The notes under the pieces were generated by a model. That model saw only the letters and a list, made by a program, of their open reading frames with translations, was not told the origin of the DNA and made no database searches. DNA of 43,923 nucleotides from an uncultured Pseudomonadales bacterium. GTDB taxonomy: Bacteria; Patescibacteriota; Microgenomatia; UBA1400; PJMF01. A program made the translations under genes and the position numbers. Where the stretch lies: contig CAZMZI010000002.1 of NCBI GenBank assembly GCA_964570775.1, forward strand, positions 1 through 43,923, written 5' to 3'. Below, piece by piece: positions 1 to 43,923 of this stretch (positions within the stretch are counted from its first letter, which is position 1; the number at the start of each line of letters is the position of its first letter).

Positions 1-3000
1 ACTCCACAGCCTTCTACACAGGTTGGGACAACATCCATGCAGAGTTCAACCTTGGTCAGTATGCCAAGCGTGTTTTCTTTGGAGCTTGGCAAGAACATGA
101 GGGACTCGGAAGTCCTACGGCCAAAGCACAACAAGCTGAGATTGTGCGGCTGCCGCTACTCCTTCTTTTTAAATTAGTTCTGCCCCCCAACCTCCATCGC
201 TTTGCCTTTATATTCCTAATGTTTGCTGTAGGTGGCGTTAGTATGTACTACTACCTAACCAGCATTTGGCTTAAGAGAACCAACACTATATATAGAAGCT
301 GGGTAGCCACCGTTGCCTCGCTATTTTATTTGCTTCACGTCCTCACTTTGCAACAGTTCTATATCAGCTTTGAAATGTTCACGGTGCAGTTTGCGTTTTT
401 CCCACTCCTCCTCCTCATCATCCACAAACTAGTGCAAAAACCAACCTACGCCAAAATGCTCTTGTTTGTACTAGTCCAAATTGCACTTGCACCCAGTGCC
501 CATACGCCAACTGTGTTTTACCTTGGTGTTGTTTTCTCTGTCATCTATGGCTTTTTTGTTTCCTTCCATACACATAAGAAACTGTTAACAGCTACTATCA
601 TGGCACTACTTATTGGCCTTGGCACCGCAGCAATTCATAGTTTTTGGATGATTCCCAATCTGTTTTATACCTTTTATAACGCTTCGTATGTGGCAGAAAG
701 TAAAGCCAACATCTTGTTTGGTCCAGAATCGTTGTGGAGCATTAGAGAAGCAAGCACCATGCATAGCTTCCTAACTGGCCTTCACTACCTGCTTACTTGG
801 AAAGACTATAGTTTTGAAAGTAGTTCCCACGTCTATATTTTTGACGAGTGGAAAGCTCACCTTGAAAGTCCCACCGTTATTCTACAAATGTATACTCTTG
901 GCATTTTTTCGCTGTTAGGACTTGGTGCCATAGTTCTAGACAAAACAAGAAAAGCAACACGCTGGGCAATTGTAATTCCCTATCTTTTTTGTGTCAGCTT
1001 TATTTGGCTGGGATTGTTTCCCACCCAGTATCTATTGCTACCACTTTTTAAAGTCTCTGCCGTCTTGGAAGCATTTAGAAACCCTTTCACTAAGCTTTCT
1101 GTCCTGTACACCTTCTTCTTAATCGTTGCCTTTGCGAGTTTTTTGGAAACGGTGTTAGCTATCATTAAAGAAAAACTTCCAACTAATCCGGCAAAAATGG
1201 TGAGCACCTTGGTGCTTGCACTCACCACTACCTACATTTTCTCTGTAGCAGAACCATCATTTTGGGGTAACTTTTTGAGTGATAAATTGGTAGCACAGTA
1301 CCCACCTGCGTACCAAGAACTTTTTTCATACATGAAGGGAAGAAACGAGTACGAAAGAGTACTTGAAATGCCATATACCTCGCATGAGGGTTGGGTGCTC
1401 CATAATTGGCCAACAGCTACACAAAACCAAGGCTACCAAGGCATTGGCTTTGTTTTTTTTGGTATCCCACAAAGTTACTTAACCCCCGATTTTGCCAGGT
1501 GGAATGCCGCAAATGACTATTTTTACCAAGAACTACAGTATGCTGTAAATACAAAAAATGCGACTCGCTTGGCGCACATTGCAGAAAAATATGTAGTTCC
1601 TTTGGTCATCTTAGACGAAACTAGAATTAACGCTCACAAAGCACATGATTTTGAAGCTACAAAACAGCTACTAACCGACGCAGGATTTGTACCAGTTTGG
1701 CACCATGAGTTTTTGACAGTGTATGAAAAAAAACTTGCTAACCGTTCAGATGGATTACTTGTTCCTTCAAGCATAAGCTTTACCGACCAGCGAATTGACC
1801 GAGTTAAAGAAGATGGTCGTTTTGTACAACAAGGCAACTATATACTGGACCCATCAGCAAAGCTTACAAAATTTTTCTATCCCTTTGCGCACCTCTACTT
1901 AGATGACATTCCTCTTGCAGCCTACTCAACCAACATAACCATGCTTACCGGGACTACACCACCGGGTGACTATATTCTCACCATTCCCGGTTTATCTGGT
2001 GATACGGTTGAAACAACCATGGCACTTAAGAGGTCTGGCAAACATATTTCAGTTTATTTCCCACAATATGCGTTAGTTGCTGGAGCTACTCGGGTGTCAC
2101 TGCCCCAGTTACAAAACCTTGAACTTACGTTGCCAGAAACAGCCATAACTGGAAATGTTGTTATCAACGGGACACCATTCGCACTCAATGAAAATGAAGT
2201 ACTCCATATTAGTGTGTCACTACAAAAAGAGGTTCCACTCCAATTTGCAAGTAGTGATGGCACAACCCTCCAGGAATATCTACCCAATTGGTCACAACTA
2301 CAGCAAACAACTAGTGCGGAGTTTACGGTAATTGATACCATTGGTTTAGAGATAGCCTTTCCACTGGCAACTGCAATCCTTTCTGCAAAACCTTCAGAAA
2401 ACTGTAGCAACGTAAAAGATACCAGCAGCATTGTGACAACCTTTGGCACAAACGGCGAAGCAACCTACACTGCTGATAAATTTGGGGTTAACTGCAATGC
2501 ACTTTCGCTCGATTTCATGACCCCTGCTTCTTCATATCTCATGCATGTGAAGGGAGAAAACTATGCAGGCAGAAGTACCAAGTTGTTTGTGAATTATTCT
2601 GGCCGAGATGCGGTACATGATGAGTACCTGCTGCCAGAATCCAGTTTTGATAAAACCTATGGATTACACAAGATTTCAAACGATGTATTGTCACAATTCT
2701 TTGTGAACTGGGAAACTCGTTCTTTTGGTAATGTAAGCAAAAATAAACTTGAAACCATTCAAGTAATCCCTTTGCCAATTGAACGATTTTCTAATGTCAA
2801 GTTAGAAAAACCACAGTTGCCCCTTGCGTATACCAACCCCATTACGGTTACTTCAACAAAATCATTTTTCGATGTTATCTATAAAGTTAAACTGGATTGT
2901 GAGTCAACCTGTTGGTTAGGACTAAACCAATCCTACGATCATTGGTGGCTTGCCTTTGATGCCTCAAATCTTAAACGCCTCACACATACCGTTTTTAATA

Positions 3001-3233
3001 ACTGGGCGAACATGTGGCAAGTAACAGATAAAAATAAAGGGGTGTATATCATATTTTTACCACAGCTTATTTCTATTGCCGCTCTGCTGGTAACACTACT
3101 TGGCATTGGCTGGTTAGGTATGGCAGCGTATGCATCAAATAAACTAGAACTACTTGAAAAAAAGAAGCGTGCACGCACGCTCCACATGACACCAAAACAT
3201 ACCCTACTTGGTATTAAACACCGCACAAAATAA
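1..3233 (+). CDS. Large polytopic membrane protein with GT-C-fold glycosyltransferase-like architecture (YfhO/AftD-like layout); 5' end runs off the window
   Basis: The frame of ORF 144..3233 stays open back to nt 3 (STAFYTGWDNIHAEFNLGQYAKRVFFGAWQEHEGLGS...), so the GTG at 144 is probably internal. The first ~400 aa are consecutive hydrophobic helices. They are followed by a ~550-aa soluble region, a single C-terminal TM helix (IIFLPQLISIAALLVTLLGIGWLGMAAY) and a basic tail. The functional call rests on architecture only. Confidence 0.55.
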   Translation, partial: STAFYTGWDNIHAEFNLGQYAKRVFFGAWQEHEGLGSPTAKAQQAEIVRLPLLLLFKLVLPPNLHRFAFIFLMFAVGGVSMYYYLTSIWLKRTNTIYRSWVATVASLFYLLHVLTLQQFYISFEMFTVQFAFFPLLLLIIHKLVQKPTYAKMLLFVLVQIALAPSAHTPTVFYLGVVFSVIYGFFVSFHTHKKLLTATIMALLIGLGTAAIHSFWMIPNLFYTFYNASYVAESKANILFGPESLWSIREASTMHSFLTGLHYLLTWKDYSFESSSHVYIFDEWKAHLESPTVILQMYTLGIFSLLGLGAIVLDKTRKATRWAIVIPYLFCVSFIWLGLFPTQYLLLPLFKVSAVLEAFRNPFTKLSVLYTFFLIVAFASFLETVLAIIKEKLPTNPAKMVSTLVLALTTTYIFSVAEPSFWGNFLSDKLVAQYPPAYQELFSYMKGRNEYERVLEMPYTSHEGWVLHNWPTATQNQGYQGIGFVFFGIPQSYLTPDFARWNAANDYFYQELQYAVNTKNATRLAHIAEKYVVPLVILDETRINAHKAHDFEATKQLLTDAGFVPVWHHEFLTVYEKKLANRSDGLLVPSSISFTDQRIDRVKEDGRFVQQGNYILDPSAKLTKFFYPFAHLYLDDIPLAAYSTNITMLTGTTPPGDYILTIPGLSGDTVETTMALKRSGKHISVYFPQYALVAGATRVSLPQLQNLELTLPETAITGNVVINGTPFALNENEVLHISVSLQKEVPLQFASSDGTTLQEYLPNWSQLQQTTSAEFTVIDTIGLEIAFPLATAILSAKPSENCSNVKDTSSIVTTFGTNGEATYTADKFGVNCNALSLDFMTPASSYLMHVKGENYAGRSTKLFVNYSGRDAVHDEYLLPESSFDKTYGLHKISNDVLSQFFVNWETRSFGNVSKNKLETIQVIPLPIERFSNVKLEKPQLPLAYTNPITVTSTKSFFDVIYKVKLDCESTCWLGLNQSYDHWWLAFDASNLKRLTHTVFNNWANMWQVTDKNKGVYIIFLPQLISIAALLVTLLGIGWLGMAAYASNKLELLEKKKRARTLHMTPKHTLLGIKHRTK

Positions 3234-3280
3234 CCCGCGTTACACTCTATGTAAGCTGCTCTTTGTACACTGAAGGCATA

Positions 3281-4471
3281 ATGAAATGGCCAGTGTTGTT
3301 AGCTCTCATGCTCACCTTCCTTGTAGTGGCCTCACCAGCACATGCCCAAATCATTATTTCTGAAGTACAAGCCAACCCACTAGAGGGCTCCGAGTGGGTT
3401 GAGCTTTACAATAGTAGTGAAACACCTGTACCTCTTGAGGGATGGCAACTGAGTGATACACTCGCTACACCCTCTGTACTACTTACTATCCCAACTGTCA
3501 CACTACAGGGTTTTGAAACAAAAGTGTTTGAAGTGAGTGGTCAAAAACTCAATAACACTGGAGATACAGTAACTGTGAGAGACAGTCTAGGTGCTATAGT
3601 AGATTCCCTTCCATTTCTTAGTGCCACTAAAGCAAAGTCCTGGCAAAAAACCAGTATAGAAAGTACTACTATTGAAACTGAACCAACACCAGGATTTCAG
3701 TTAGTACAACCAACACCTAGTCCTACTCCCTCACCACAAGTAACGCCAACACCCACCCCATCACTGGTACCTACCCCAACGCCATCGCCAGTACCTTCCT
3801 TATTACCTTCATCGGCACCACCAAACGCCACATCACTAGACTCACTTATAATCCCACAAGTATATGCATGCCCAAATGCAGGTGAACAAGAGTGGATACA
3901 ACTTCAAAATCTTTCCTCAGAAATACTCCCGCTCGTCGGCGTCACCCTAACTGATCTTGCAGGTAACTCACTCCCTTTGCCTAATCTCCTAGAACCTCAC
4001 AGCACCACAACCATCACACTTTCTAAGTCAGTACTTAACAATGCAGGTGAAACATTAACCTTTGCAAATAAAGACGGGACTCCAATCAAAGAAGTTGAAA
4101 TATTAGCGTGCCAAACTGGTGTGAGTACCACGCTTACCTCCTATCTTCAAAATACTCAAACATTCCAAGAAATAGACAGTAAGGTATCAGAAGTGAGTAC
4201 GAATACTGCCACTGCAACTCAAAGTGCAAGTTTAGAAAACACCCCTGCCATGCCTCCTGCATTGTTACAACTTAGTCAAAACATGTATGCGCTACCACTA
4301 CTCAAACTACCCCAACCACAAACACAGATGAGAGATACACCTATCGAGCTTACCAGGGCGGCAAAGCAGCTGCCAAAATCTGGTGTGATTTGTGCTATAG
4401 TAGGCGGGTTACTCTGCTGTATAGCTGCAGCATGGTACCAGTATAAGCAAACACTTACTGCACCATCATGA
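3281..4471 (+). CDS. Secreted surface protein with two lamin-tail domains (LTD), a Pro/Thr-rich linker and a C-terminal LPKSG sorting-signal-like anchor
   Basis: ATG at 3281 is preceded by GAAGG; the track start at 3263 is TTG. Signal peptide MKWPVLLALMLTFLVVASPAHA/Q. LTD signature IIISEVQANPLEGSEWVELYNSSETPVPLEGWQLSD ... LNNTGDTVTVRDSLGAIVDS. Second copy: EQEWIQLQNLSSE...LTDLAGN...LNNAGETLTFANKDG. C-terminus is LPKSG (4370..4384), then an 18-aa hydrophobic stretch, then YKQ. Confidence 0.8.
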   Translation: MKWPVLLALMLTFLVVASPAHAQIIISEVQANPLEGSEWVELYNSSETPVPLEGWQLSDTLATPSVLLTIPTVTLQGFETKVFEVSGQKLNNTGDTVTVRDSLGAIVDSLPFLSATKAKSWQKTSIESTTIETEPTPGFQLVQPTPSPTPSPQVTPTPTPSLVPTPTPSPVPSLLPSSAPPNATSLDSLIIPQVYACPNAGEQEWIQLQNLSSEILPLVGVTLTDLAGNSLPLPNLLEPHSTTTITLSKSVLNNAGETLTFANKDGTPIKEVEILACQTGVSTTLTSYLQNTQTFQEIDSKVSEVSTNTATATQSASLENTPAMPPALLQLSQNMYALPLLKLPQPQTQMRDTPIELTRAAKQLPKSGVICAIVGGLLCCIAAAWYQYKQTLTAPS

Positions 4472-5313: not shown

Positions 5314-6186
5314 ATGTTTAAAAAATACCAAGCACATATACTGCAAGTTGCCATTCATTCTTTGCAATTTAGAGCAGAAATGATTACGCACATAGTGCTT
5401 GATGCTGTGCCATTTGTGGTAGTGCTTTTTATTTGGCTAGCACTGTTTCAAAACACAGCAACAATTCAAAACTTCACATTCCCACAAATTGTAGAGTACT
5501 ACCTACTTGCACTCATTATTGAAAGATGTACCGCATCACACTTTGAGAGTTGGAGATCACAAGAAATTCGTGAAGGAAAAATTGATTACTACTTAACCAA
5601 ACCATTTTCCTACCTTCACAGTATCGTAGCAAAAGATATTGGTGGGAAAATAGTAAGCATTCTATTAAGTATTCCTATTTTTATGCTGCTTATCCTGCTT
5701 TTACAGCAAATTTTTTCCTTTCAGTTACCTTCCTTTTCTCTCGGTATTCTTATACCATTTGTATTGTTCCTTCTGTTTGCGTATGCAATGCAAACACTGA
5801 TAGCCCTGTGGATAGTTCTACTTACCTTTTGGTTTGAAGGTTCCGATGGGTTAGAACACTTTAAATGGATCACTATCTCGCTTTTTAGTGGCGCAATGCT
5901 GCCCTATACCTTTATGCCAGAGTGGTTGCAAACTGCATTCGACTATTTACCCTTTAAATACCTATACGCGGTGCCAATTGGCATTGCGCAACAACAACTT
6001 ACCATCTCGGCATCATTACTACTTGGAATGTCAGTTACACTGGTGACAATGGTTTTGTGTACAAAACTACTGTGGATAAAAGCTGTACGGGTGTATTGTT
6101 CGGCGGGGGGGTTAAACAAACACAATGAAAAAATATTGGTTTCTTTTCTGGTACTTTCGCAAAATGCAGCTCATGAAAATGGTTGA
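5314..6186 (+). CDS. ABC-2 type transporter permease, paralog 1 (DUF990/ABC2_membrane_6-like), with an anomalous 24-aa C-terminal tail
   Basis: Six-helix hydrophobic profile and M-x-KY N-terminus. Shares the motif G-(K/D)-(I/F)D-(Y/F)-x-L-(T/S)-KP with the three paralogs. It continues 24 aa past the family-typical ...YCSAGG end and overlaps the next gene by 62 nt. A G7 tract lies at 6105..6111. Confidence 0.75.
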   Translation: MFKKYQAHILQVAIHSLQFRAEMITHIVLDAVPFVVVLFIWLALFQNTATIQNFTFPQIVEYYLLALIIERCTASHFESWRSQEIREGKIDYYLTKPFSYLHSIVAKDIGGKIVSILLSIPIFMLLILLLQQIFSFQLPSFSLGILIPFVLFLLFAYAMQTLIALWIVLLTFWFEGSDGLEHFKWITISLFSGAMLPYTFMPEWLQTAFDYLPFKYLYAVPIGIAQQQLTISASLLLGMSVTLVTMVLCTKLLWIKAVRVYCSAGGLNKHNEKILVSFLVLSQNAAHENG

Positions 6187-6916
6187 GTACCGTTCAAACT
6201 TTTTATTTTGGTCTGTGGTCTCTCTGATGTGGACTGCCTTTAACTACTTTTTCTTCGGGCTGTTGTTTGGACAAAAGGATCAGCTTGCTGGATGGTCATA
6301 TCTCGAATTACAAGTGGTACTCTCTTTTTTTACAATGCTTGACTCATTCATTTGGTCTGTCTTTTATCCAAACATGACACAGTATACGCAAGCCATTTTT
6401 TCTGGTGAACTCAGCAAGTATTTGTTGCAACCAGTTAGCAGCTTGTTTCTGCTCACCACACAACATGCTACCTACCACAATGTTCCTCGTTTTTTAGTTG
6501 GATTAACAGTTCTTACACAATCACTGATTGCACTTGGTATATATCCTAGTTTCCTGCAGATACTTGCAAGCATGGTTCTGTTTTGTTGCAGTATTTTATT
6601 TATTTACACAGGCTGGTTTCTTACCGCAACACTTGCCTTTTGGGTTGAACGTTTTAATAACAGTGCGGATATTATGCCTGGACTCAGAAGGGTGTATCAA
6701 ATTCCTCGTCAACTCTATACAGGCACCATAAGTTTTGTGTTTACACTCGTTTTTCCACTTGGTCTTGTTACAACGCTCCCCAGTGAAGTTCTGTTACAAA
6801 AAAATACTTCGCTATCTCTAAGCGTCTACTTTGTAGCGTTTACACTCCTTTTCATGTTTGGTACCTACCGATTTTACAAATACTCTATTACCAAGTACAC
6901 AGGAGTTGGCGGCTAA
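6125..6916 (+). CDS. ABC-2 type transporter permease, paralog 2
   Basis: 263 aa. MKKYWFLFWYFRKMQLMKMVEYRSNF..., GELSKYLLQPVSSLF motif, multiple TM helices, ends ...KYTGVGG. Confidence 0.8.
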   Translation: MKKYWFLFWYFRKMQLMKMVEYRSNFLFWSVVSLMWTAFNYFFFGLLFGQKDQLAGWSYLELQVVLSFFTMLDSFIWSVFYPNMTQYTQAIFSGELSKYLLQPVSSLFLLTTQHATYHNVPRFLVGLTVLTQSLIALGIYPSFLQILASMVLFCCSILFIYTGWFLTATLAFWVERFNNSADIMPGLRRVYQIPRQLYTGTISFVFTLVFPLGLVTTLPSEVLLQKNTSLSLSVYFVAFTLLFMFGTYRFYKYSITKYTGVGG

Positions 6917-6947
6917 CACACCAATTTGGTGCGCTATACTAACACGT

Positions 6948-7949
6948 ATGTCAAAACCAGTTATTGAAGTTGCACACTTAACAAAACATTTTTCCGTGTA
7001 TAAAAAGCAACAGGGATTGTGGGGCTCGATACAGTCACTTTGGCACAGAGAATATGAAACAGTTGCTGCAGTAGAAGATGTAAGCTTTAGCATTGATGAA
7101 GGCGAGATAGTAGGATTTATTGGCAAAAATGGGGCAGGAAAAACAACCACCCTTAAAATGCTTTCTGGCTTGCTGTTCCCTACAAGCGGTTCAGTCTCTG
7201 TGCTCGGTTTTAATCCTTGGGACAGGAAATCTGCATTTCAAAAGCAGTTTGCATTAGTGATGGGTCAAAAAAATCAATTATGGTGGGACTTACCTGCTAT
7301 TGAAACCTTCAACTTAAACAAGGCTATCTACGAAATACCAGATGCTCAATTTAAAAAAACGCTTACAAAACTAACCGATTTGCTAGATATTGGAGATAGT
7401 TTACAAATACAGGTACGTAAGCTCTCTTTAGGTCAGAGAATGAAGTGTGAACTTATTGCTGCATTGCTCCACAATCCTAAAGTGTTGTTCTTAGATGAGC
7501 CAACAATTGGGTTAGATGTGGTGATGCAAAAAATTCTGCGTGACTTTATTGCAGCATATAACAAAGAGTTTGGTGCAACCATTATTCTCACCAGTCATTA
7601 TATGGATGATGTCAAAGAACTATGTAAGCGTGCAATTATTATTGATCAAGGCAAGAAAATTTTTGATGGACAATTACAGTCGATAATTGATGACTATGCC
7701 CGCAATAAAATTCTCTCGCTTGTTTTTAGTTCACCGGTTCCACTAGCAAAAGTGAAGTCATTTGGCACACTCAAAACTGAAAGTGAAGAAAAATCACATG
7801 CTGAAATTTCTTCTGCAACACTCTTGGTTCCAAGGAAGAAAGCAACAAGTGTCGCGGCAAAACTACTTTCCGAGTTACCGGTACAAGACCTAACAATAGA
7901 AGAACCCTCAATTGAGGCAATTATCCGTGAAGTCTTTGCAACTAAATAA
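6948..7949 (+). CDS. ABC transporter ATP-binding protein (COG4586-like)
   Basis: Walker A GKNGAGKTT, signature LSLGQRM, Walker B VLFLDEPT, H-loop TSHYM, plus the GQKNQLWWDLP motif. I chose the ATG at 6948 (MSKPVIEVAHLTKHF). The track start at 6858 would add 30 non-homologous aa overlapping the upstream permease. Confidence 0.9.
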   Translation: MSKPVIEVAHLTKHFSVYKKQQGLWGSIQSLWHREYETVAAVEDVSFSIDEGEIVGFIGKNGAGKTTTLKMLSGLLFPTSGSVSVLGFNPWDRKSAFQKQFALVMGQKNQLWWDLPAIETFNLNKAIYEIPDAQFKKTLTKLTDLLDIGDSLQIQVRKLSLGQRMKCELIAALLHNPKVLFLDEPTIGLDVVMQKILRDFIAAYNKEFGATIILTSHYMDDVKELCKRAIIIDQGKKIFDGQLQSIIDDYARNKILSLVFSSPVPLAKVKSFGTLKTESEEKSHAEISSATLLVPRKKATSVAAKLLSELPVQDLTIEEPSIEAIIREVFATK

Positions 7950-8740
7950 TGAACAAGTACTGGATACTGTTACTCCTTAGCTGGCAAAATGGCCTGGTAT
8001 ATAGAACGAGCGTTATACTGTGGCGATTCCGTCAACTACTTAGTACTATCATGGCTATCTCAGTTTGGTCTGTTGTATTTGGCGGACAACAGTTGGCATT
8101 TGGTTACTCTAACTCACAAATGACCACCTACATCTTACTTACTGCGTTCCTGCAAAGTATTGTGCTTGCTACAGTACTCCATGGCCTTGCAGAAACAATT
8201 TATTCTGGCAACTTGAGCAATATATTACTTAAACCCGTAAATGTGTTTGCTTACCTTGGCTTACAAGATGTAGCTGACAAAATCAAAAATGGTATAGCTC
8301 TCATCATTGAAACATTTATAGTACTCAGTATTTTTAAACTAGAACTTTCTGTACCTTCTTTACTGGTTATTGGTGTGTTTCTTGTTTGGGTAAGTGGAGC
8401 AATGGTTCTCAATTTTCTTGTAGCACTACTCTTTGGTGGGATAGGGTTCTGGAGCCCTGAGACTTGGGGCCCTCGATTTTTGTTTTTTATGTTTTTGGAA
8501 TTTACTGCAGGCAAACTGTTCCCATTAGATATCATGCCAAAAAGTGTGCAGGATGTTGTTTTTCTTACACCATTTCCCTACTTTTCATTTGTCCAAAGCC
8601 AACTTTTTTTACAAAAATTAACTCAAGCGGAAATCCTCCATCACTCGTTGATGTTAGGTTTCTGGATCATGCTACTCTGGGGTAGTGTTGTGTTGATTTG
8701 GAAAAAAGGACTACGTAATTACTCGTCAGCAGGAAGATAA
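7949..8740 (+). CDS. ABC-2 type transporter permease, paralog 3
   Basis: 263 aa. MNKYWILLLLSWQNGLVYRTS..., GNLSNILLKPVNVFAY motif, ends ...NYSSAGR. Its start overlaps the ATPase stop (TAATG at 7947..7951). Confidence 0.8.
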   Translation: MNKYWILLLLSWQNGLVYRTSVILWRFRQLLSTIMAISVWSVVFGGQQLAFGYSNSQMTTYILLTAFLQSIVLATVLHGLAETIYSGNLSNILLKPVNVFAYLGLQDVADKIKNGIALIIETFIVLSIFKLELSVPSLLVIGVFLVWVSGAMVLNFLVALLFGGIGFWSPETWGPRFLFFMFLEFTAGKLFPLDIMPKSVQDVVFLTPFPYFSFVQSQLFLQKLTQAEILHHSLMLGFWIMLLWGSVVLIWKKGLRNYSSAGR

Positions 8741-9526
8741 ATGCATAAATACTTTATTATTTGGGCCACGTTGGCTAGTAGTGCACTACAAGAAACCTTT
8801 ATTAACCGAGGTACAAACGCACTGTTTTTAAGTGGTAAGGTTATTCGCTTTGCCTTTTCACTCTTATTTTTACTGCTACTCAAAAACAATCTCAGTTCGT
8901 TTTCCACCTATACCGTGGACCAAGTTATTGTCTTTTATCTTACCTACCAATTTATTGATACTCTTGCACAAGTTTTTTACAGAGGTGTCTATTTGTTTGG
9001 AAACCAAATTAAATCGGGTGACTTTGATTTTTCACTCTCAAAACCAATCAGCCCTCTCTTTCAGGCTCTTGTTGGAAAACCTGATATCAATGATACTCTG
9101 TTTTTAATTGGTACAACCGTTTTTAGCGTACTGATGGCCTCACAACTAGCAATTACCATCACTCCCATCACCTTTATACTTTTTTGTATTTTGCTCTGTA
9201 ATAGCTTTATTGTTGCTACTGCACTTCATATCCTCGTCTTAGTGGCTGGAATACATCTCACCGAAGTTGACGGGATTATTTGGTTATATAGAGATGTGAC
9301 TAGACTTGGTCAATTTCCCGTAACCGCCTATATTGAACCACTAAGATCACTACTGCTGTTTGTCATTCCCGTGGGAATACTCTTCACTGTACCTGTGGAT
9401 GTACTGCTTGGCTTTGTTAGTCCAGTAGGGGCACTACTCACTTGTCTGTTTGGAATAGGACTCTTACTATGTTCAGTGAAGATATGGCACTGGAGCTTAA
9501 AACACTACCAAAGTGCAAGTAGTTGA
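8741..9526 (+). CDS. ABC-2 type transporter permease, paralog 4
   Basis: 261 aa. MHKYFIIWATLASSALQETFINRG..., GDFDFSLSKPISPLF motif, ends ...HYQSASS. The ATG immediately follows the upstream TAA. Confidence 0.8.
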   Translation: MHKYFIIWATLASSALQETFINRGTNALFLSGKVIRFAFSLLFLLLLKNNLSSFSTYTVDQVIVFYLTYQFIDTLAQVFYRGVYLFGNQIKSGDFDFSLSKPISPLFQALVGKPDINDTLFLIGTTVFSVLMASQLAITITPITFILFCILLCNSFIVATALHILVLVAGIHLTEVDGIIWLYRDVTRLGQFPVTAYIEPLRSLLLFVIPVGILFTVPVDVLLGFVSPVGALLTCLFGIGLLLCSVKIWHWSLKHYQSASS

Positions 9527-38276: not shown

Positions 38277-39257
38277 CTAGCGCAAGTATCTATTAATGTT
38301 TGCGTTATGCTCATCTAAGGTCTGAGCAAAATACATCTCACCAGAAGGTGCATGGAGATAAAAAAGGTCATCAACAACTAAGGGATCCAATGCTGCCTTC
38401 AGTGCATTACTGCCAGGATTACAAATAGGGCCAGGTGGCAAACCAGGATACATATAGGTATTGAACAAACTAGTAATTTGCTTATCTGCCGAAAGTGGTG
38501 TGCCCCACCACTCTCCTTGTGCATTCTTACCTTTTGCATATTGGAGTGTTGCGTCTACTTGCAGTGCCATACCCAAATCAATTCTGTTCCAAAGGATGCC
38601 TGCTACATGTCGCATCTGCGTATAGTCACGCGCCTCTCTTTGTACCAACGAAGCCATAATAAGCACATCCTCAAACGGCCTCACTTGTGCATCAATCAAA
38701 CTCTGTAGTGAGTCGACTTGAGCTATATACTGCGTAGTAAGCAGCTCATACAACTGTTCAGCTGTCATCTCTCTAGGCACTAGGTAGGTTTCTGGAAACA
38801 GCGTCCCTTCACTTTCTGAAGACAAAGACAAGAAGGTTTCAATATCAAACTCCGTGAGCTCTTCTTGCGCATCCAAATACTCTGCAACTTGTTCTACCCT
38901 CCAGCCTTCAAGTATGGTTATCCACACGTCTTGTGTCCCTTTTGTAAGTTGCTGGGCAATCTCATGAGGTGTCTGTGTAGGTGACAAATCAAAAGACCCA
39001 GCTTGTAACTTTGGACCAAGACCTTTGAAACGTACTAATAATTTAAAGAGATTAGCATTTTTAATGAGGCCTGCTTCTTGCAATCTGTAAGCAATTGAAC
39101 CTACTGCCTCACCTTTTTTTATAACAAAAACTTGATTTATCGTTTGTGCATCAGAGACAGGCTGCAATAGTGTCCAAACAAAGAGAAACACACTAGCCAC
39201 TAAAATAGAGAGTGTAACACAAGCTCCCAGTAACAACTGTTTTTTTGAAATACTCAT
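38277..39257 (-). CDS. mltG: Endolytic murein transglycosylase MltG (YceG family)
   Basis: N-terminal TM helix. YceG signature MASLVQREARDYTQMRHVAGILWNRIDLGMALQVDATLQYA...YNTYMYPGLPPGPICNPG. The ATG at 39257 overlaps the macro-domain gene stop (TGATG); the track start at 39260 is TTG. Confidence 0.9.
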   Translation of the reverse strand: MSISKKQLLLGACVTLSILVASVFLFVWTLLQPVSDAQTINQVFVIKKGEAVGSIAYRLQEAGLIKNANLFKLLVRFKGLGPKLQAGSFDLSPTQTPHEIAQQLTKGTQDVWITILEGWRVEQVAEYLDAQEELTEFDIETFLSLSSESEGTLFPETYLVPREMTAEQLYELLTTQYIAQVDSLQSLIDAQVRPFEDVLIMASLVQREARDYTQMRHVAGILWNRIDLGMALQVDATLQYAKGKNAQGEWWGTPLSADKQITSLFNTYMYPGLPPGPICNPGSNALKAALDPLVVDDLFYLHAPSGEMYFAQTLDEHNANINRYLR

Positions 39258-39832
39258 CAAGCATCATTTCTGTTATATGTTTCATCAAAAATTGGCTCTG
39301 CAATAGCACATTTTTCTGCAGTATAAAAAATGCAACGTACTTCCTTAATGGTAGAACCTGCAAACTGAGGGTCAAAAAAGTATCCGCCAATTGCTCTTGC
39401 CATAACTTGAGAAGCTTTATCAACTGGATACCCAGAGATACCGGTAGAAATACAGGGGAATGTAATGCTTGTTAACTGATACTGGTCAGCCAACCAAAGA
39501 CAATTACGATAGCATGCCGTTAGCAACTGGGTTTCTTGTCCATCTGCTTTGCCAAACACTGGTCCAACGGTATGGATAATGTATGGTGCGGGAAGATTAT
39601 ATCCCTTGGTAATTATAACTTGCGCAGTTTCTAAACCACCATACTGTTTGCACTCTTCTTTCATCCCTGGTCCTGCAGCCTGCGTAATTGCCGTATCCAC
39701 ACCACCAGCCATTTCGAAATTTTTGGTTGTGGCATTTACAATAGCATCGGTGTGTTGTTGCGTTATATCACCTTCCAGCAACACAACCAAGGGTAACGTA
39801 CCAAAGTGTTTCCAGTATTCTTTTTTATGCAT
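39257..39832 (-). CDS. Macro-domain protein (ADP-ribose / O-acetyl-ADP-ribose binding or hydrolase family)
   Basis: LLEGDITQQHTDAIVNATTKNFEMAGGVDTAITQAAGP...IIHTVGPVF...SITFPCISTGISGYP, the canonical macro-domain motifs. Confidence 0.85.
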   Translation of the reverse strand: MHKKEYWKHFGTLPLVVLLEGDITQQHTDAIVNATTKNFEMAGGVDTAITQAAGPGMKEECKQYGGLETAQVIITKGYNLPAPYIIHTVGPVFGKADGQETQLLTACYRNCLWLADQYQLTSITFPCISTGISGYPVDKASQVMARAIGGYFFDPQFAGSTIKEVRCIFYTAEKCAIAEPIFDETYNRNDA

Positions 39833-39874: not shown

Positions 39875-40264
39875 CTACTCATGTTCATCAATCCATTCTT
39901 GTAAGAAAGTAGCAGCCGCAAAGTGGTCAATTGCACTTCTTCGCACTGCTTTCTTTGCAAATTGGAGCTTTTCATGTACGGATTTAGAGCTCAGGGTTTC
40001 GTCAATACACTGCACTGGAAGTGACACACGTTGTTGTAACTCTTGTGCAAATGTTTGGCTTTTTTGAGCCATTTCATTTTCAGAAACACCAACCACTATT
40101 TGGGCAACTTCTTCCTCGGCAATAATGGCGAGCAAAATTGAAAACAGATTGGCATCATTTGGCACAATGGTAAGTGGGTCTGCAAGTGTGCCTCGACTCA
40201 CTGCTACACCCACCCGTACTGTGCCATAATCGAGTGCTAATGTCTTTGGAATCATAGTGGTCAT
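39875..40264 (-). CDS. ruvX: YqgF/RuvX-family putative pre-16S rRNA nuclease (Holliday-junction-resolvase-like)
   Basis: MTTMIPKTLALDYGTVRVGVAVS...IVVGVSENEMAQ...IDETLSSK...DHFAAATFLQEW. The ATG at 40264 overlaps the sortase stop (TAATG); the 20-aa upstream extension in the track is non-homologous. Confidence 0.88.
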   Translation of the reverse strand: MTTMIPKTLALDYGTVRVGVAVSRGTLADPLTIVPNDANLFSILLAIIAEEEVAQIVVGVSENEMAQKSQTFAQELQQRVSLPVQCIDETLSSKSVHEKLQFAKKAVRRSAIDHFAAATFLQEWIDEHE

Positions 40265-41211
40265 TATTGTACCAGCTGAGCTGTAACTACACCTCTGCGA
40301 AGGTAAGTACCCTCTGGGGTACAAGTTACTAGCTTAAGCTGCTTTGCATCGTAGTGTTGTGTCAAGATATACACGTCTTCAGGTTGTACTTCAGTTTTTT
40401 CCTGAACTATGTATCGATACTTCACCCCGTCTGCGGTTACAAAAATCTCGTCACCAGATTTAAGTGTCATAATAGTACTAAAAATTGAATTATACCTTCG
40501 GGGATTCTTTTCACTGGGGTTATAAAACTGTCTGAGCACCGAGTGTCCAAAAATTACTGGCGCACCTGGTTTGCCAGGCAAAGCAGTACCTTTATATGCC
40601 ACCAAAGACTTATTAAGGTCAACCCCTCCCACAGTAACAACTGCGTTCTGAATGTTCAGCTTTGGAATATCAATAACATACTCTTCAATTGAGCTCTCTG
40701 TACTTCCTTGTAGTGGCAATTCTGGCAGGGTGGCAGTAGTAAACCAATTATTGAGGTTAGTGTAATCTAGTTGTTCATCAACAATGATAGGCTCGATGTG
40801 CTCATCGCTCAAACCAGCTACTGTTCCGGAATTATCAATTACTAAAGGAGTAACATCCATAACTTGTTCACGAGGAATCGGTGCTAAGAGATATGCCGTT
40901 TGCAGTGCAGGTGAAGTACTCACATAATACGTCAAGATTGGGAACACAGCACTGCCAACCAAGTAGATGCCAAAACCTAGAAAAAAAACTGGTATAACAA
41001 ATGCTCCAAGTCGTACTACTTTTGGCACTCTCCTCTTAACTTTTTGAGCGCGCTCTGTTACATAGGTTTTTTCGACTACGTCACTCACAGACATTCGAGC
41101 CATTTGTTTTTGAATTTTCGACTCTAATTCCTCTAAAGGTACACCACGAAGTAACGCTTTACGATATAACTCAACTAATTGAGAATGGAGAACGGTCTGC
41201 TTGGCACTCAT
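40264..41211 (-). CDS. Sortase-family transpeptidase with a ~65-aa cytoplasmic N-terminal extension
   Basis: TM helix LGAFVIPVFFLGFGIYLVGSAVFPIL. Catalytic triad context: PVIFGHS (His), QLKLVTCTP (TLxTC-type Cys), YLRRGVVTAQLV (Arg). The start overlaps the upstream gene stop (TAATG at 41209..41213). Confidence 0.88.
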   Translation of the reverse strand: MSAKQTVLHSQLVELYRKALLRGVPLEELESKIQKQMARMSVSDVVEKTYVTERAQKVKRRVPKVVRLGAFVIPVFFLGFGIYLVGSAVFPILTYYVSTSPALQTAYLLAPIPREQVMDVTPLVIDNSGTVAGLSDEHIEPIIVDEQLDYTNLNNWFTTATLPELPLQGSTESSIEEYVIDIPKLNIQNAVVTVGGVDLNKSLVAYKGTALPGKPGAPVIFGHSVLRQFYNPSEKNPRRYNSIFSTIMTLKSGDEIFVTADGVKYRYIVQEKTEVQPEDVYILTQHYDAKQLKLVTCTPEGTYLRRGVVTAQLVQ

Positions 41212-43436
41212 TACTTAATTTCTTTTTTGAGCACTACTTCAACACGCTTGGCATCCTTAGGCACGCTGCGAGCAAAAGAAGGCATGAGTACTGCTTCAAC
41301 ACTTTTCACCCCTGTCAGGGTTTTTAAGTAGTTCTGAGCATCAGCTACAGATAAGCCGAGTATGCCCTGCTTTGCTTCTTCCAAACTAATCTTTGGGATT
41401 GCTACAGAACTAAGGTTTGCTGAAATCTTAGTGATACCTGCGGATCCAGATGCAGTTTTAGTTTCCTCTGGTGCTGAAAGGATTTGAGGCTTTTCCTCGG
41501 AGAGTTCATACCCTTCTGGAATTTCACTGGCCAAAACTGCTGCTGCAAGTGGCTGCAAATCTTGAATAGTATAGGAAAGAAGAGATACCGTCATTTCTAA
41601 GTCTGCAGTCACCTCATTGGCTTCCGTATCAACTTTTGCATCGTATGTAACAGACTCTTTAGATACCACTGCTTCTGGTAACACATATACCCCCTCTGGA
41701 GCCTCATCTTGCAAGGCTTTGCTTGCCTCATCTAGAAGTTTTTTCTTTAGTTCACTGAATGCTTCAGCTTGGTCTGCAGCAGCAACAACCCGGACTTCTC
41801 TGCTTGAACCACCGGTGAAATCTTTAGTGGCTACTGCTTCATACGTTGTTGCAGCGAAAGACTCAATGATGAATTTACTCTCTTTAGCAATATTACTTTC
41901 AATACCAATTTCTTTAGCGGTAATAGCAACATCTGTTTTACCAAACTCGGTTTCTGTCTTACCAACTTTTTCAGTTACACTTGCAGAAGCAACTTTCACG
42001 TCTGTATCAAGAGTGAACAACAAAGATCCAGATTTGAAGGAGGTACCAGCTTTAAACTCTTTTTCTGCAGTCGTTTTGTTATAGAGGGTAACAGTACCTT
42101 TAGCTTTTTCACCAACAATTTTAATACCAGTGGTAAGTATAGTGTTTTCTCCCGAAACTGTTTTAGAAACTGTCTTGGCTGCAAGTATCAACTTTTCTGC
42201 ATCAGATTGAGTTGCCGTAGAATCGAGTTGCAGCGTAACCTGCTTGGCAACTTGCTTCGTTTCAAGCTCAAGCACAAACTTGGTTGTCGCAAAGAGAGAC
42301 GTGGCAAAAAAGGCTAATGCAACAATAGTAAGTAATCCACCTACAATTCCCGCTATAACAAATTTCTTTGTATGTTTGGTATGAAATAAAGAGTGCATAT
42401 CTTTTTTTGTAGCAGCTGGAGCATTTTTTGTTTCCACATGTTCAGAAGCTTGTTTTTTGGCAGCATGACTGGTAGGTGCATGTACAGCTGAATGGGCATC
42501 TTTAAGTTTTTCTGGCGGTATAGGTATTCCAAAAGAAGTTGGTTGATGCTCGGCGAAACCTAAATCTGCAGCGGTACTTTGTGAAACAGCTTGCAACTCC
42601 GAACCAGCTACAGGTTGGAGATGCTGTGAAGATTGGGATGCTGTTGACAATCCTTTTGTTGCTGCAATAGCTACGCCCGCTTCATCTGCCAAAGTCTGCA
42701 GATATTCTTGCTGAGAAATAACGTGGATTGTTGGAGTTTGCAAAAATTCTGGATGCTCTGTCCAGTTAATCGCTAAAAGATGTTGCTGAACTTCACGTAA
42801 CGCTTCATCTGTCTCATCACTTGATGCTAAAAGCAACTGAGGGGGTAAATAACCGGCATTTTCAACAGATGGATTTGAAAATCGTGCAAGACCTTCTGCT
42901 AAATCACCTACTAAATCTCCAGATCTACCAACAGATACAGTACCCGTAACCGTACCTCTTTCCACAAGTGACAACGTCACGTGTTCTACTCCAACTATTA
43001 CTACAACGGCAGAAAACCGTGCATCTTTGGCAAGTTGTTTTTCCACTACTGCCTCAGATGTGACTATAAAACCAAGTGGCTCTAGTGAAAGATCATCGGT
43101 AATTTTTTTTAGGAGAGGTTTTTTCTCGTCTGCTAATTCACCAGCCTTGGTCCATGTATGTGGCACTGCAAATAGAACAGCACTGACTTGTTCTGACTCA
43201 GGACCTAAGTCTTGCAGTACCTCATCAGTTCTTTGTACGGCTGTCGTAGTATCTGTATATTTTTTTTGCTTAGAGCGTTGTTCAAGCTCAACTACACCGT
43301 TCTCAATTTTGAGCAGTAGTGACTGTACTGAACCACTCGTAATTATTAGACCAAGAAAACGATCAACTGTTTGAGTAGCTGTTTTTTTGTTGGTAAAGAG
43401 TTGTGGCAGTTCCATAGTGTGCGCAACAGAAAACAA
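41211..43436 (-). CDS. Bitopic membrane protein of unknown function: degenerate ASKHA (actin/Hsp70-like) cytoplasmic domain, low-complexity linker, one TM helix and a ~355-aa ectodomain
   Basis: 741-aa ORF. The track start is a TTG with GGGAG 11 nt upstream, and an ATG at codon 8 is an alternative. TM helix FVIAGIVGGLLTIVALAFFATSLFA (about aa 358-385). See the findings for the motif-level reasoning. I recognise no confident family. Confidence 0.6.
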   Translation of the reverse strand: MFSVAHTMELPQLFTNKKTATQTVDRFLGLIITSGSVQSLLLKIENGVVELEQRSKQKKYTDTTTAVQRTDEVLQDLGPESEQVSAVLFAVPHTWTKAGELADEKKPLLKKITDDLSLEPLGFIVTSEAVVEKQLAKDARFSAVVVIVGVEHVTLSLVERGTVTGTVSVGRSGDLVGDLAEGLARFSNPSVENAGYLPPQLLLASSDETDEALREVQQHLLAINWTEHPEFLQTPTIHVISQQEYLQTLADEAGVAIAATKGLSTASQSSQHLQPVAGSELQAVSQSTAADLGFAEHQPTSFGIPIPPEKLKDAHSAVHAPTSHAAKKQASEHVETKNAPAATKKDMHSLFHTKHTKKFVIAGIVGGLLTIVALAFFATSLFATTKFVLELETKQVAKQVTLQLDSTATQSDAEKLILAAKTVSKTVSGENTILTTGIKIVGEKAKGTVTLYNKTTAEKEFKAGTSFKSGSLLFTLDTDVKVASASVTEKVGKTETEFGKTDVAITAKEIGIESNIAKESKFIIESFAATTYEAVATKDFTGGSSREVRVVAAADQAEAFSELKKKLLDEASKALQDEAPEGVYVLPEAVVSKESVTYDAKVDTEANEVTADLEMTVSLLSYTIQDLQPLAAAVLASEIPEGYELSEEKPQILSAPEETKTASGSAGITKISANLSSVAIPKISLEEAKQGILGLSVADAQNYLKTLTGVKSVEAVLMPSFARSVPKDAKRVEVVLKKEIK

Positions 43437-43516: not shown

Positions 43517-43923
43517 CTACTCTAAGTAGACTCTTCGCACTCCCGCCGATACAGACTGTTCTTTAACAATCTTAACTGGACCAATACTGCCAGTACTGGC
43601 TACATGTGGACCACCACAGAACTCTTTTGAGACCCAGTTAGTTTCTGGATCTGCTCCGATGGTGTACACGGTAACCGTATCAGGGTACTTTTCAACAAAA
43701 AAGGCAATTGCGCCAGAAGAAAGCGCTTCCTGTTTTGGCAGAGTTTGTACACTCACCGGCAAGTCCTCACGAATCCATTGGTTCATTTGGTCTTCAACTT
43801 GTTGCTTTTGCTCTTGGGTTAGAGGCTCTGTGTGGGTAAAATCAAAACGCAAACGATCTCCCGTAATGTTTGACCCTTTTTGTTGTACGTGAGTTCCCAC
43901 AATTTTTCGTAATGCCGCATGTA
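43517..43923 (-). CDS. alaS: 3' end of an alanyl-tRNA synthetase or AlaX-type editing protein (tRNA_SAD editing domain); the gene continues beyond the window
   Basis: The frame is open to the window edge: ...HAALRKIVGTHVQQKGSNITGDRLRFDFTH...EFCGGPHVASTGSIGPVKIVKEQSVSAGVRRVYLE-stop. This aligns with the AlaRS editing-domain motifs HAALRKVLGTHV.QKGS, CGGTH and AAGVRRIEAV. Confidence 0.8.
   Translation of the reverse strand, partial: HAALRKIVGTHVQQKGSNITGDRLRFDFTHTEPLTQEQKQQVEDQMNQWIREDLPVSVQTLPKQEALSSGAIAFFVEKYPDTVTVYTIGADPETNWVSKEFCGGPHVASTGSIGPVKIVKEQSVSAGVRRVYLE

Follow-up and report, generated by a model that had tools for sequence, protein, structure and literature searches.

The DNA analysed here, the whole contig CAZMZI010000002.1 of 43,923 nucleotides (assembly GCA_964570775.1) and referred to below as the window, carries on its minus strand a gene for a bitopic membrane protein whose stop codon overlaps the start codon of a sortase gene. 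The question raised by this locus is what this protein is, and what it does beside a sortase. The evidence moderately favours the explanation that it is the fused, degenerate Microgenomatia form of an actin-like plus baseplate-like envelope module specific to the candidate phyla radiation (CPR), which would act as a nucleotide-independent transmembrane scaffold and to which the sortase has been recruited.

The gene is an uninterrupted minus-strand open reading frame (ORF) at 41211..43436, as stated in an earlier, sequence-only reading of the window; the length of 741 amino acids (aa) given there counts from TTG in the ORF list, and 734 aa from the ATG at 43415 is likelier. Homologues open at the equivalent MxLPxLF (MELPQLF in the window), M1 is kept in at least 90% of them in the alignment, and the NCBI protein P0001, 100% identical to the window protein, has 734 aa; residues are therefore numbered from ATG 43415.

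41211..43415, minus strand: coding sequence of the bitopic protein (ORF list, homologue starts, P0001; the mechanical ORF extends to TTG 43436)

A search of 1.84 billion representative proteins with the family profile recovered 11,708 clusters (50% identity) at E<=1e-3 and 3,487 at E<=1e-30, a number far beyond chance. Where the source is named, it belongs to Woesebacteria, Pacebacteria or other Patescibacteria, and every such protein is annotated as 'hypothetical protein'. An origin of the fusion in assembly or gene calling is rejected, as the best 150 representatives are all 656-825 aa long, nearly all of them matching the profile over its full length, and no break interrupts the ORF in 60+ species.

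The N-terminal domain and its counterpart in Saccharibacteria

The features of the N-terminal domain are as follows.

42651..43367, minus strand: cytoplasmic minimal ASKHA (actin/FtsA-like) domain, residues ~17-255, without the FtsA 1C and 2B subdomains (AlphaFold2, Foldseek, hhalign)
43326..43355, minus strand: degenerate phosphate-1 loop, LGLIITSGSV where ALDIGTEFV is expected (global hhalign, column census)
42975..43007, minus strand: degenerate phosphate-2 loop, VVVIVGVEHVT where ILADVGGGTTD is expected (hhalign, census)
42882..42932, minus strand: kept motif VGRSxxxxxDxxEGLAR, with S165, D171 and E174 invariant, corresponding to GGRS...D in the FtsA-like paralogue described below (alignment, census, hhalign)

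Residues 1-306, modelled with AlphaFold2 from an alignment of 54 sequences, display a duplicated beta-beta-beta-alpha-beta-alpha-beta-alpha topology in ~240 residues, followed by a disordered tail (predicted local distance difference test, pLDDT, 86.5; predicted template modelling score, pTM, 0.80). Two RNase-H-like subdomains and a crossing C-terminal helix, the hallmarks of ASKHA proteins, are evident from the order of secondary structures in the model and from Foldseek. The Foldseek search against PDB gave 804 matches at E<=1e-3, of which the best 50 are all ASKHA proteins; the best matches are Ppx/GppA (5e-10), PilM of Pseudomonas aeruginosa (2e-8), EutJ, ROK kinases, YeaZ, CoaX and BT_3980. 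The degenerate ASKHA fold proposed in the sequence-only reading is confirmed at the level of the predicted model.

Sequence searches with single proteins or general profiles did not recover this relationship. The Pfam/NCBIfam scan of the window protein gave below-threshold noise only (DUF3899, DUF3072) and no FtsA/ASKHA family at E<=1, the Pfam scan of the 54 members gave no ASKHA family at E<=0.1, and HMMER against all PDB sequences returned nothing meaningful from either the single sequence or the 54-member family profile.

The column census over the 54 homologues reveals that the canonical nucleotide-binding motifs of ASKHA proteins (DxG, DxGGGT and GGG) are missing. The phosphate-1 Asp column holds L/I/V/W/H, with Asp in 1/54; the phosphate-2 column holds V/L/F/I/Y, with Asp in none of the 54, and the GGGT loop is unconserved; the adenosine GGG is replaced by A-S-x. 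The positions that are kept are G115, E121-A122 (connect-1 'E..A'), G163-R164-S165, D171 and E174. Since the motifs are lost across the homologues, the N-terminal domain is most likely a nucleotide-independent pseudo-ATPase, as the sequence-only reading had anticipated.

The invariance of G115, E121, G163-R164-S165, D171 and E174, together with an acidic residue three positions after the canonical phosphate-1 Asp in 35/54 homologues, could be taken to mean that the domain is an active nucleotide-dependent enzyme, actin-like or of kinase type, with non-canonical residues, and that the protein is an energy-transducing machine. This is highly improbable, as essentially all members are without the Asp of phosphate-1 and of phosphate-2 and without the Gly-rich loops, the adenosine GGG is gone, the window protein itself has Ser at the variable acidic position, and the unfused Saccharibacterial paralogue, which retains every motif, displays what an active version looks like.

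That paralogue is found in three Saccharibacterial loci (L065, L066/L067, L068), in which the order is alaS > FtsA-like > transmembrane plus Baseplate-J > ruvX > mltG, with no sortase in the slot. The FtsA-like protein is of 420-421 aa, matches PF14450 at 2.7e-15 and TIGR01174 at 3e-35 but under the cut-off of the latter, carries canonical DIGT, DVGGGTTD and GGGA motifs intact, and is 84-88% identical across many Saccharibacteria. PGAP and Prokka both annotate it as 'pilus assembly protein PilM'. The second protein, of 549-553 aa, starts within a few bases of the stop of the FtsA-like gene, and comprises a ~100-aa cytoplasmic domain, one transmembrane helix and a Baseplate-J-like ectodomain including GGSSREVKVV.

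In hhalign, the profile of the N-terminal domain matches the Saccharibacterial FtsA-like protein with a probability of 95.8 (E 8e-9, 136 columns), whereas the controls (E. coli FtsA, MreB, GspL and HofM, and shuffled and reversed sequences) are null at E 0.3-0.5; the domain can accordingly not be filed by sequence under any of these four E. coli proteins. A second profile comparison with the FtsA-like paralogue agrees (probability 94.6, E 6.8e-8, 30% identity). The global alignment pairs DIGT with IITS, DVGGGTTD with IVGVEHVT, GGRS with VGRS and YLPNRILLCGGGAS with YLPPQLLLASSDET, and leaves unmatched template residues ~95-190 and ~262-305, which are the FtsA 1C and 2B insertions. FtsA 1C (SHS2) is absent from the N-terminal domain, and a transmembrane helix occupies the place of the FtsA C-terminal amphipathic helix. 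In 64 loci with the fused gene, a stand-alone FtsA-like gene is absent up to a distance of 7 kb.

The same arrangement can be followed in Saccharibacterium S. epibionticum ML1 in Tables S1 and S2 of PMC10633639 (Wang et al. 2023), which list SEML1_0657 (alaS), SEML1_0656 (under the name 'pilus assembly protein PilM'), SEML1_0655 ('baseplate J/gp47 family protein', the label that PGAP already gives to this homologue), SEML1_0654 (RuvX) and SEML1_0653 (MltG). There, SEML1_0656 is assigned to KEGG K03590 with an FtsA domain and SHS2-like top matches. The true FtsA adjoins FtsZ (SEML1_0174, SEML1_0175) and the PilM of the type IV pilus adjoins PilN (SEML1_0104) in the same tables; as both are separate genes, the actin-like protein paired with the baseplate-like one is a third FtsA/PilM paralogue. 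The window protein shares with this third paralogue both the profile homology and the position beside the transmembrane plus Baseplate-J coding sequence. A specific relationship between the N-terminal domain and the third paralogue is shown by profile comparison, and descent from it is likely; the idea of an FtsA/PilM-type connector, put forward in the sequence-only reading, thereby becomes more specific, in that the relative is a separate gene directly upstream of the transmembrane plus ectodomain gene in Saccharibacteria. The simplest reading of these alignments and gene orders is that the Microgenomatia protein is this actin-like paralogue fused to the transmembrane plus Baseplate-J protein, and that the Saccharibacterial loci represent the split form.

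At SEML1_0655 residues 6-105 (6497-6800 of L065), a ~100-aa SpoIIAA/STAS-like cytoplasmic domain stands where the Microgenomatia protein has its pseudo-actin domain, and the separate actin-like paralogue may dock there.

The membrane anchor and the ectodomain

The remaining parts of the protein are as follows.

42363..42650, minus strand: low-complexity cytoplasmic linker, residues 256-351 (pLDDT 46-65; length varies among homologues)
42519..42566, minus strand: two conserved short linear motifs in the linker, DLGF (284-287) and TSFGIPI (293-299, G296 invariant) (alignment)
42291..42362, minus strand: the only transmembrane helix, residues 352-375, flanked on its cytoplasmic side by basic HTKHTKK (sequence; helix at residues 9-34 of the C-terminal model)
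41214..42290, minus strand: extracellular Baseplate J/gp47/gp6-like multidomain ectodomain, residues 376-734 (AlphaFold2, Foldseek PDB, BFVD, PF04865)
41826..42125, minus strand: beta-barrel part with the PF04865 signal (VGEKAKGxVxxxNKT...; G430, G435, A438, G440 and N446 invariant) (PF04865 matches of P0041, P0065 and P0209; GlxA beta-barrel matches)
41793..41813, minus strand: invariant GGSSREV motif (alignment; the pattern that retrieved 65 species loci)

The two linker motifs, (E/D)LGF(S/T)EV and TSFGIPI across homologues, have a pLDDT of about 61-65, above that of the rest of the linker; in distant family members one (D/E)(L/M)GFx(I/V)GxDV motif replaces both. The single helix, together with the HTKHTKK that precedes it in agreement with the positive-inside rule, bears out the architecture with the N-terminus inside and the C-terminus outside that the sequence-only reading had described, and its placement of the helix at 42282-42365 agrees with 42291-42362. 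The N-terminal sequence is without a signal peptide, and the C-terminus, RVEVVLKKEIK, is without a hydrophobic segment or sorting signal. The protein is consequently rejected as a sortase substrate itself; the scan found such signals in other proteins only.

The ectodomain, which the sequence-only reading could not place in any family, is Baseplate J/gp47/gp6-like. The AlphaFold2 model of residues 341-734 (pLDDT 92.9) displays the transmembrane helix followed by a beta-rich region and then alpha/beta domains. PF04865 (Baseplate_J) is matched by 34/54 family members at E<=0.1 (best 1e-6), and no other Pfam family recurs; the window protein gives no match to it at E<=1. Three members (P0041, P0065, P0209) reach 22-23 bits against a gathering score of 21.1, with a match confined to positions ~20-112 of the 255 in the profile, and one Saccharibacterial relative also exceeds the gathering score. 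The portion which matches is the beta-barrel part.

In Foldseek against PDB, the ectodomain aligned over 335-386 columns with baseplate wedge proteins (probability 1.0, E 2e-6 to 6e-4), namely the Diffocin triplex 8v3w (2e-6) and those of phi812, Mu, cyanophage A-1(L), XM1 and phiCD508; the GlxA beta-barrel is also among the matches, and those in BFVD are named Baseplate J-like viral proteins. Because the global TM-score is only ~0.2, the likeness to the wedge proteins is one of domain content and order in the predicted model, and the rigid-body arrangement differs. ECOD assigns gp6 domain III in SEML1_0655 in the tables of PMC10633639, which independently supports the Baseplate-J assignment; a 'pilus-binding domain of G3P'-like segment is assigned there as well. 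Invariant motifs of the ectodomain in the alignment are TTGxKxVGEKAKG, AxxIGxExN and GGSSREV.

The likeness to Baseplate J in both sequence and fold raises the question whether the gene belongs, as a part or a relic, to a prophage, tailocin or contractile injection system baseplate and lies beside housekeeping genes by accident. The position of the gene is fixed between alaS and ruvX-mltG in >65 species, next to rpoB and ribosomal operons, and further genes for a tail, sheath, tube or spike occur in none of the loci; the family spans 11,708 clusters; and a transmembrane anchor with a cytoplasmic domain is incompatible with a virion part. A prophage origin is rejected on synteny and is effectively refuted. 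The neighbours in all loci are alaS, sortase, ruvX, mltG and rpoB, not a baseplate gene cluster.

A further possible reading is a subunit of PilM-PilN/GspL type, belonging to the assembly platform of a filament machine (for a type IV pilus, for competence or of another kind) and linking an ATPase to the pilus base. PilM is among the best Foldseek matches (E 2e-8, TMq 0.44-0.48), GspL is likewise built of a degenerate actin-like domain, a transmembrane helix and an outer domain, the Saccharibacterial partner carries the name PilM in PGAP and Prokka, and the G3P-like segment lies in the Saccharibacterial ectodomain. Against this, the PilM_2/GspL profile is matched by 0/54 members, hhalign against E. 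coli HofM and GspL is null, pilB, pilC, pilN, pilO, pilin or gsp genes occur in none of ~70 neighbourhoods, S. epibionticum has its own type IV pilus PilM-PilN at another site, and the ectodomain is baseplate-like rather than of the ferredoxin-like PilN/PilO/GspL fold. The analogy fits the design, membership fails on every feature tested, and such a role is quite unlikely.

The adjacent sortase and the gene order

The neighbouring features are as follows.

40264..41211, minus strand: sortase of 315 aa, with a cytoplasmic N-tail, a transmembrane helix, a linker and a catalytic domain with H223, C297 and R305 (PF04203 7e-21, NCBIfam, orthologue alignment)
41209..41213, minus strand: TAATG stop/start overlap of the bitopic protein gene and the sortase gene (sequence)
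43517..43923, minus strand: 3' end of alaS, the conserved upstream neighbour, which runs off the window (PF07973 3e-17, tblastn synteny)
39875..40264, minus strand: ruvX (YqgF), whose start overlaps the sortase stop (PF03652 5e-25, sequence)
38277..39260, minus strand: mltG (YceG), the last conserved member of the alaS-...-ruvX-mltG cluster (PF02618 2e-71, synteny in 50+ loci)
3263..4471, plus strand: candidate sortase substrate, a secreted LTD-domain protein with LPKSG, a hydrophobic helix and a short tail (PF00932 2e-20, C-terminal sequence)

The minus-strand order is the 3' end of alaS, the bitopic protein, sortase, ruvX, a macro-domain gene and mltG/YceG, and then rpoB, rpoC and ribosomal protein genes. 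The last base of the TAA of the bitopic protein gene (41213-41211) is common with the sortase ATG (aag TAATG agt), and that of the sortase TAA with the ruvX ATG at 40264 (caa TAATG acc), so that TAATG stands at both junctions, as noticed from the letters alone.

One genome per GTDB species was scanned with the GGSSREV pattern, taken from 17 closer sequences, which gave 65 loci, and synteny over these was followed by tblastn with the neighbours in the window. The sortase lies directly downstream in 62/63 species loci with room for it; the loci without it are L017 and L061, where the contig ends, and the single Saccharibacterial locus L065. The distance from the stop of the bitopic protein gene to the sortase start in the 62 loci is -8 to +49 nucleotides (nt); in most cases the two genes overlap by 1, 4 or 8 nt or are separated by no more than 12 nt. 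The alaS gene upstream, and ruvX and mltG downstream, are conserved equally with the sortase. The most divergent fused members (25-28% identity, three Woesebacteria loci) keep the order alaS > bitopic protein > sortase > ruvX > small ORF > mltG > rpoB. The adjacency expected in the sequence-only reading is conserved in these as well, and because such divergent members keep it, the coupling to the sortase is, judged by gene order, old within Microgenomatia.

The sortase reaches 44.3 bits for TIGR01076 against a cut-off of 39.35, and none of the class-specific NCBIfam models passed. Its catalytic residues H223 (FGHS), C297 (LVTCTP) and R305 (YLRRG) are conserved in 62 orthologues. The cytoplasmic tail is unusually long, at ~66 aa (residues 1-66; 41014-41211, minus strand), and carries the conserved LxxLYRxALxxGVxLxxLExK. 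Sortases are near-ubiquitous in Microgenomatia (PMC6744442), in agreement with a coupling that is particular to this lineage. In one locus (L029, 9142-10007) the downstream sortase appears as two tblastn pieces with a 361-nt gap to the called start, which may be a frameshift or pseudogene in one genome.

The LTD protein is of 402 aa, with an N-terminal signal peptide and a C-terminus of LPKSG, VICAIVGGLLCCIAAAWY and QYKQTLTAPS; it is plausibly a substrate of the sortase. Proteins ending in LPESG, a transmembrane segment and KxKN are encoded in two related loci (L052 1149-1634, L056 1078-1575). These C-termini suggest LPxSG as the recognition motif.

These observations can be read to mean that the primary job of the bitopic protein is that of a dedicated sortase partner, which holds or positions the enzyme through contact of the pseudo-actin domain with its cytoplasmic tail. 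The TAATG coupling, the adjacency in 62/63 loci and in the divergent Woesebacteria, the LxxLYRxAL conserved in the unusually long tail and the LPxSG substrates nearby all point this way. Such a dedicated role is nevertheless unlikely. The Saccharibacterial module sits in the same slot without a sortase and is still required for fitness, the sortases of L063 and of Woesebacteria, of 218-252 aa, are without the long tail, and the conservation of the ectodomain exceeds the need of a mere tether. As the divergent sortases are without the tail and Saccharibacteria are without the adjacent sortase, a direct cytoplasmic contact of pseudo-actin and sortase cannot be general. Sortase positioning, which the sequence-only reading had offered as a possible role, is therefore unsupported as the core function and at most a lineage-specific addition.

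Several further observations concern the surroundings. In the three Woesebacteria loci (L073-L075), RNase J, FtsK and an HTH_25 (RodZ-like) protein are encoded upstream of alaS (~1200-3900), and a conserved 65-66-aa ORF lies between ruvX and mltG (~9270-9480). In the window, the macro-domain gene (39257-39832, minus strand; PF01661 1e-38) between ruvX and mltG occurs only here and in L001-L004, the nearest four relatives; the remaining ~60 loci are without it. On the plus strand, an ORF of 1029 aa (144-3233), rich in hydrophobic segments at either end and unmatched in Pfam at E<=1e-3, encodes a large polytopic membrane protein directly upstream of the LTD protein, and 5314-9526 holds an ABC-2 type transporter cluster of four paralogous PF06182 permease genes and one ATPase gene, with overlapping adjacent reading frames. 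The GC content is even across the window (about 40-42%), and the promoter/terminator scan found fewer promoter-like sites than in shuffled sequence. The records of L001, L009-L013 and many other metagenome-assembled genomes with this Patescibacterial locus are titled 'uncultured Pseudomonadales bacterium' or 'Gammaproteobacteria', and the complete genome L057 (CP011212.1) 'candidate division TM6'; these titles are probably taxonomic mislabels in public records.

Role of the module and comparison with known systems

The importance of the split module is evident from the transposon sequencing of S. epibionticum in the tables of PMC10633639. SEML1_0655, a Patescibacteria-enriched core family, is non-essential at T0 and essential at T1 and T2 (class II essential), with normalised reads falling from 373 to 34 and 24; SEML1_0656 is non-essential at the first two points and displays a growth defect by passage 2, with reads of 2427, 660 and 221. 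The sortases of this organism are encoded at other sites (SEML1_0327, SEML1_0711), and the main text of PMC10633639 is silent on SEML1_0655 and SEML1_0656. Since Saccharibacteria retain the module, and it is of importance there, with no sortase beside it, a general envelope scaffold which recruited the sortase is ranked over a dedicated sortase positioner.

In the favoured explanation, a third FtsA/PilM paralogue would have been fused to the transmembrane plus Baseplate-J protein and then cut to its core, with loss of 1C, 2B and the nucleotide-binding motifs. The product would be a transmembrane scaffold independent of nucleotide, whose pseudo-actin domain may dock a cytoplasmic partner, either itself or actin-like/divisome proteins, and whose baseplate-like ectodomain may form an oligomeric platform on the membrane's outer face for assembly of the cell envelope. 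In Microgenomatia, the co-translated sortase would be recruited to this platform, so that LPxSG proteins are anchored at the site of the scaffold.

A number of points weigh against this explanation. The window protein itself is below every Pfam threshold, and the global TM-scores are modest for the N-terminal domain (0.35-0.48 in Foldseek) and ~0.2 for the ectodomain, even though the local 3Di alignments span the whole protein in both cases. The hhalign link was obtained with one template family of low diversity (84-88% identical) and is contrasted with E. coli proteins, not with CPR FtsA or CPR PilM proper. The scaffold role and the recruitment of the sortase are drawn from architecture and gene order alone, and a neighbourhood of alaS, ruvX and mltG is a weak functional indicator. 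L063 and L073-L075 have sortases of 218-252 aa that are without the long tail, and Saccharibacteria keep the module without an adjacent sortase. As for the contrary outcomes that the sequence-only reading had itself named, none was encountered: an ASKHA fold is present, no characterised family was matched and the sortase adjacency is conserved.

A wider proposal can be put forward tentatively, namely that Patescibacteria possess a hitherto unrecognised trans-envelope machine in which a dedicated actin-like protein, the third paralogue (intact in Saccharimonadia, fused and without catalytic activity in Microgenomatia), is coupled across the membrane to an exapted baseplate wedge domain that oligomerises on the surface. 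In Microgenomatia it would be the site of sortase-dependent LPxSG anchoring, and in all CPR it would be needed for envelope growth or a host-attached lifestyle.

Neither fold is new, and for Saccharibacteria databases already carry a label for the ectodomain family. What is undescribed in the literature searched is the fused pseudo-actin architecture, the Rosetta-stone link to the third FtsA/PilM paralogue and the near-invariant translational coupling to a sortase; the literature on sortase, baseplate J or FtsA in CPR/Patescibacteria/Saccharibacteria gave no description of the family, and the family is not involved in the 2026 Pam-pilus preprint. CPR/Patescibacteria make up a large share of bacterial diversity, and their envelope biology is almost unknown; here, a Patescibacteria-enriched core family is concerned whose member in Saccharibacteria turns essential as the cells grow on the host (Table S1 of PMC10633639). 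As the actin-like and baseplate-like parts are fused in one class and adjacent genes in another, Rosetta-stone evidence suggests that they act together, a hypothesis which can be tested in the genetically tractable S. epibionticum (SEML1_0655, SEML1_0656). The invariable coupling in Microgenomatia ties the module to the anchoring of surface proteins, and in the ectodomain a phage baseplate fold has clearly been taken over for a housekeeping context in the cell.

Among known systems, the baseplate wedge proteins (Baseplate J, Mu gp47, P2 gpJ, T4 gp6 and the Diffocin wedge; PF04865) resemble the ectodomain in the beta-barrel segment, which attains the Pfam gathering score in some members, in a Foldseek alignment over 320-450 columns with the same domain order at probability 1.0, and in the ECOD gp6 domain III of the Saccharibacterial homologue. 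The window protein differs from them as a membrane-anchored cellular protein in a housekeeping operon without tail genes nearby, with poor global superposition (TM-score ~0.2) and an invariant GGSSREV.

The neighbouring sortase shares with the housekeeping sortases of Gram-positive bacteria (class A/E, septal) the Sortase domain with a His-Cys-Arg triad and substrates with LPxSG, a transmembrane segment and a tail. It differs in reaching no NCBIfam class model and in its conserved cytoplasmic tail of ~66 aa, and an obligatory coupling to a pseudo-actin membrane protein is undescribed for known sortases in the literature searched.

GspL combines a degenerate actin-like domain, a transmembrane segment and an outer domain. 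With GspL/EpsL of the type II secretion system and with PilM-PilN fusions, the window protein has in common the design principle of a bitopic build, with a nucleotide-free actin-like domain as docking module, one transmembrane helix and an outer domain; it differs in the null hhalign result, another ectodomain fold, no secretion or pilus genes nearby and a sortase as the partner gene.

In relation to the FtsA/PilM actins (PF14450, PF11104), the window protein has no Pfam or TIGR match to FtsA or PilM, is without 1C (SHS2) and 2B, has lost the nucleotide motifs and is joined covalently to a transmembrane helix, whereas FtsA uses a C-terminal amphipathic helix. It shares with these actins the ASKHA core, and with the third paralogue (SEML1_0656, for example) also profile homology at E 8e-9, the GRS...D, YLPxxxLL and W...PF..PT segments and the slot directly before the transmembrane plus Baseplate-J coding sequence. 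The closest counterpart of the remaining part is SEML1_0655 (PGAP 'baseplate J/gp47'; Patescibacteria-enriched core family of Meheust et al. 2019), which differs in having a SpoIIAA/STAS-like domain in place of pseudo-actin, a separate actin-like gene upstream and no adjacent sortase, and which is alike in its homologous transmembrane plus ectodomain region (tblastn 1e-15, ~26% identity, GGSSREV) and in its alaS/ruvX/mltG neighbourhood.

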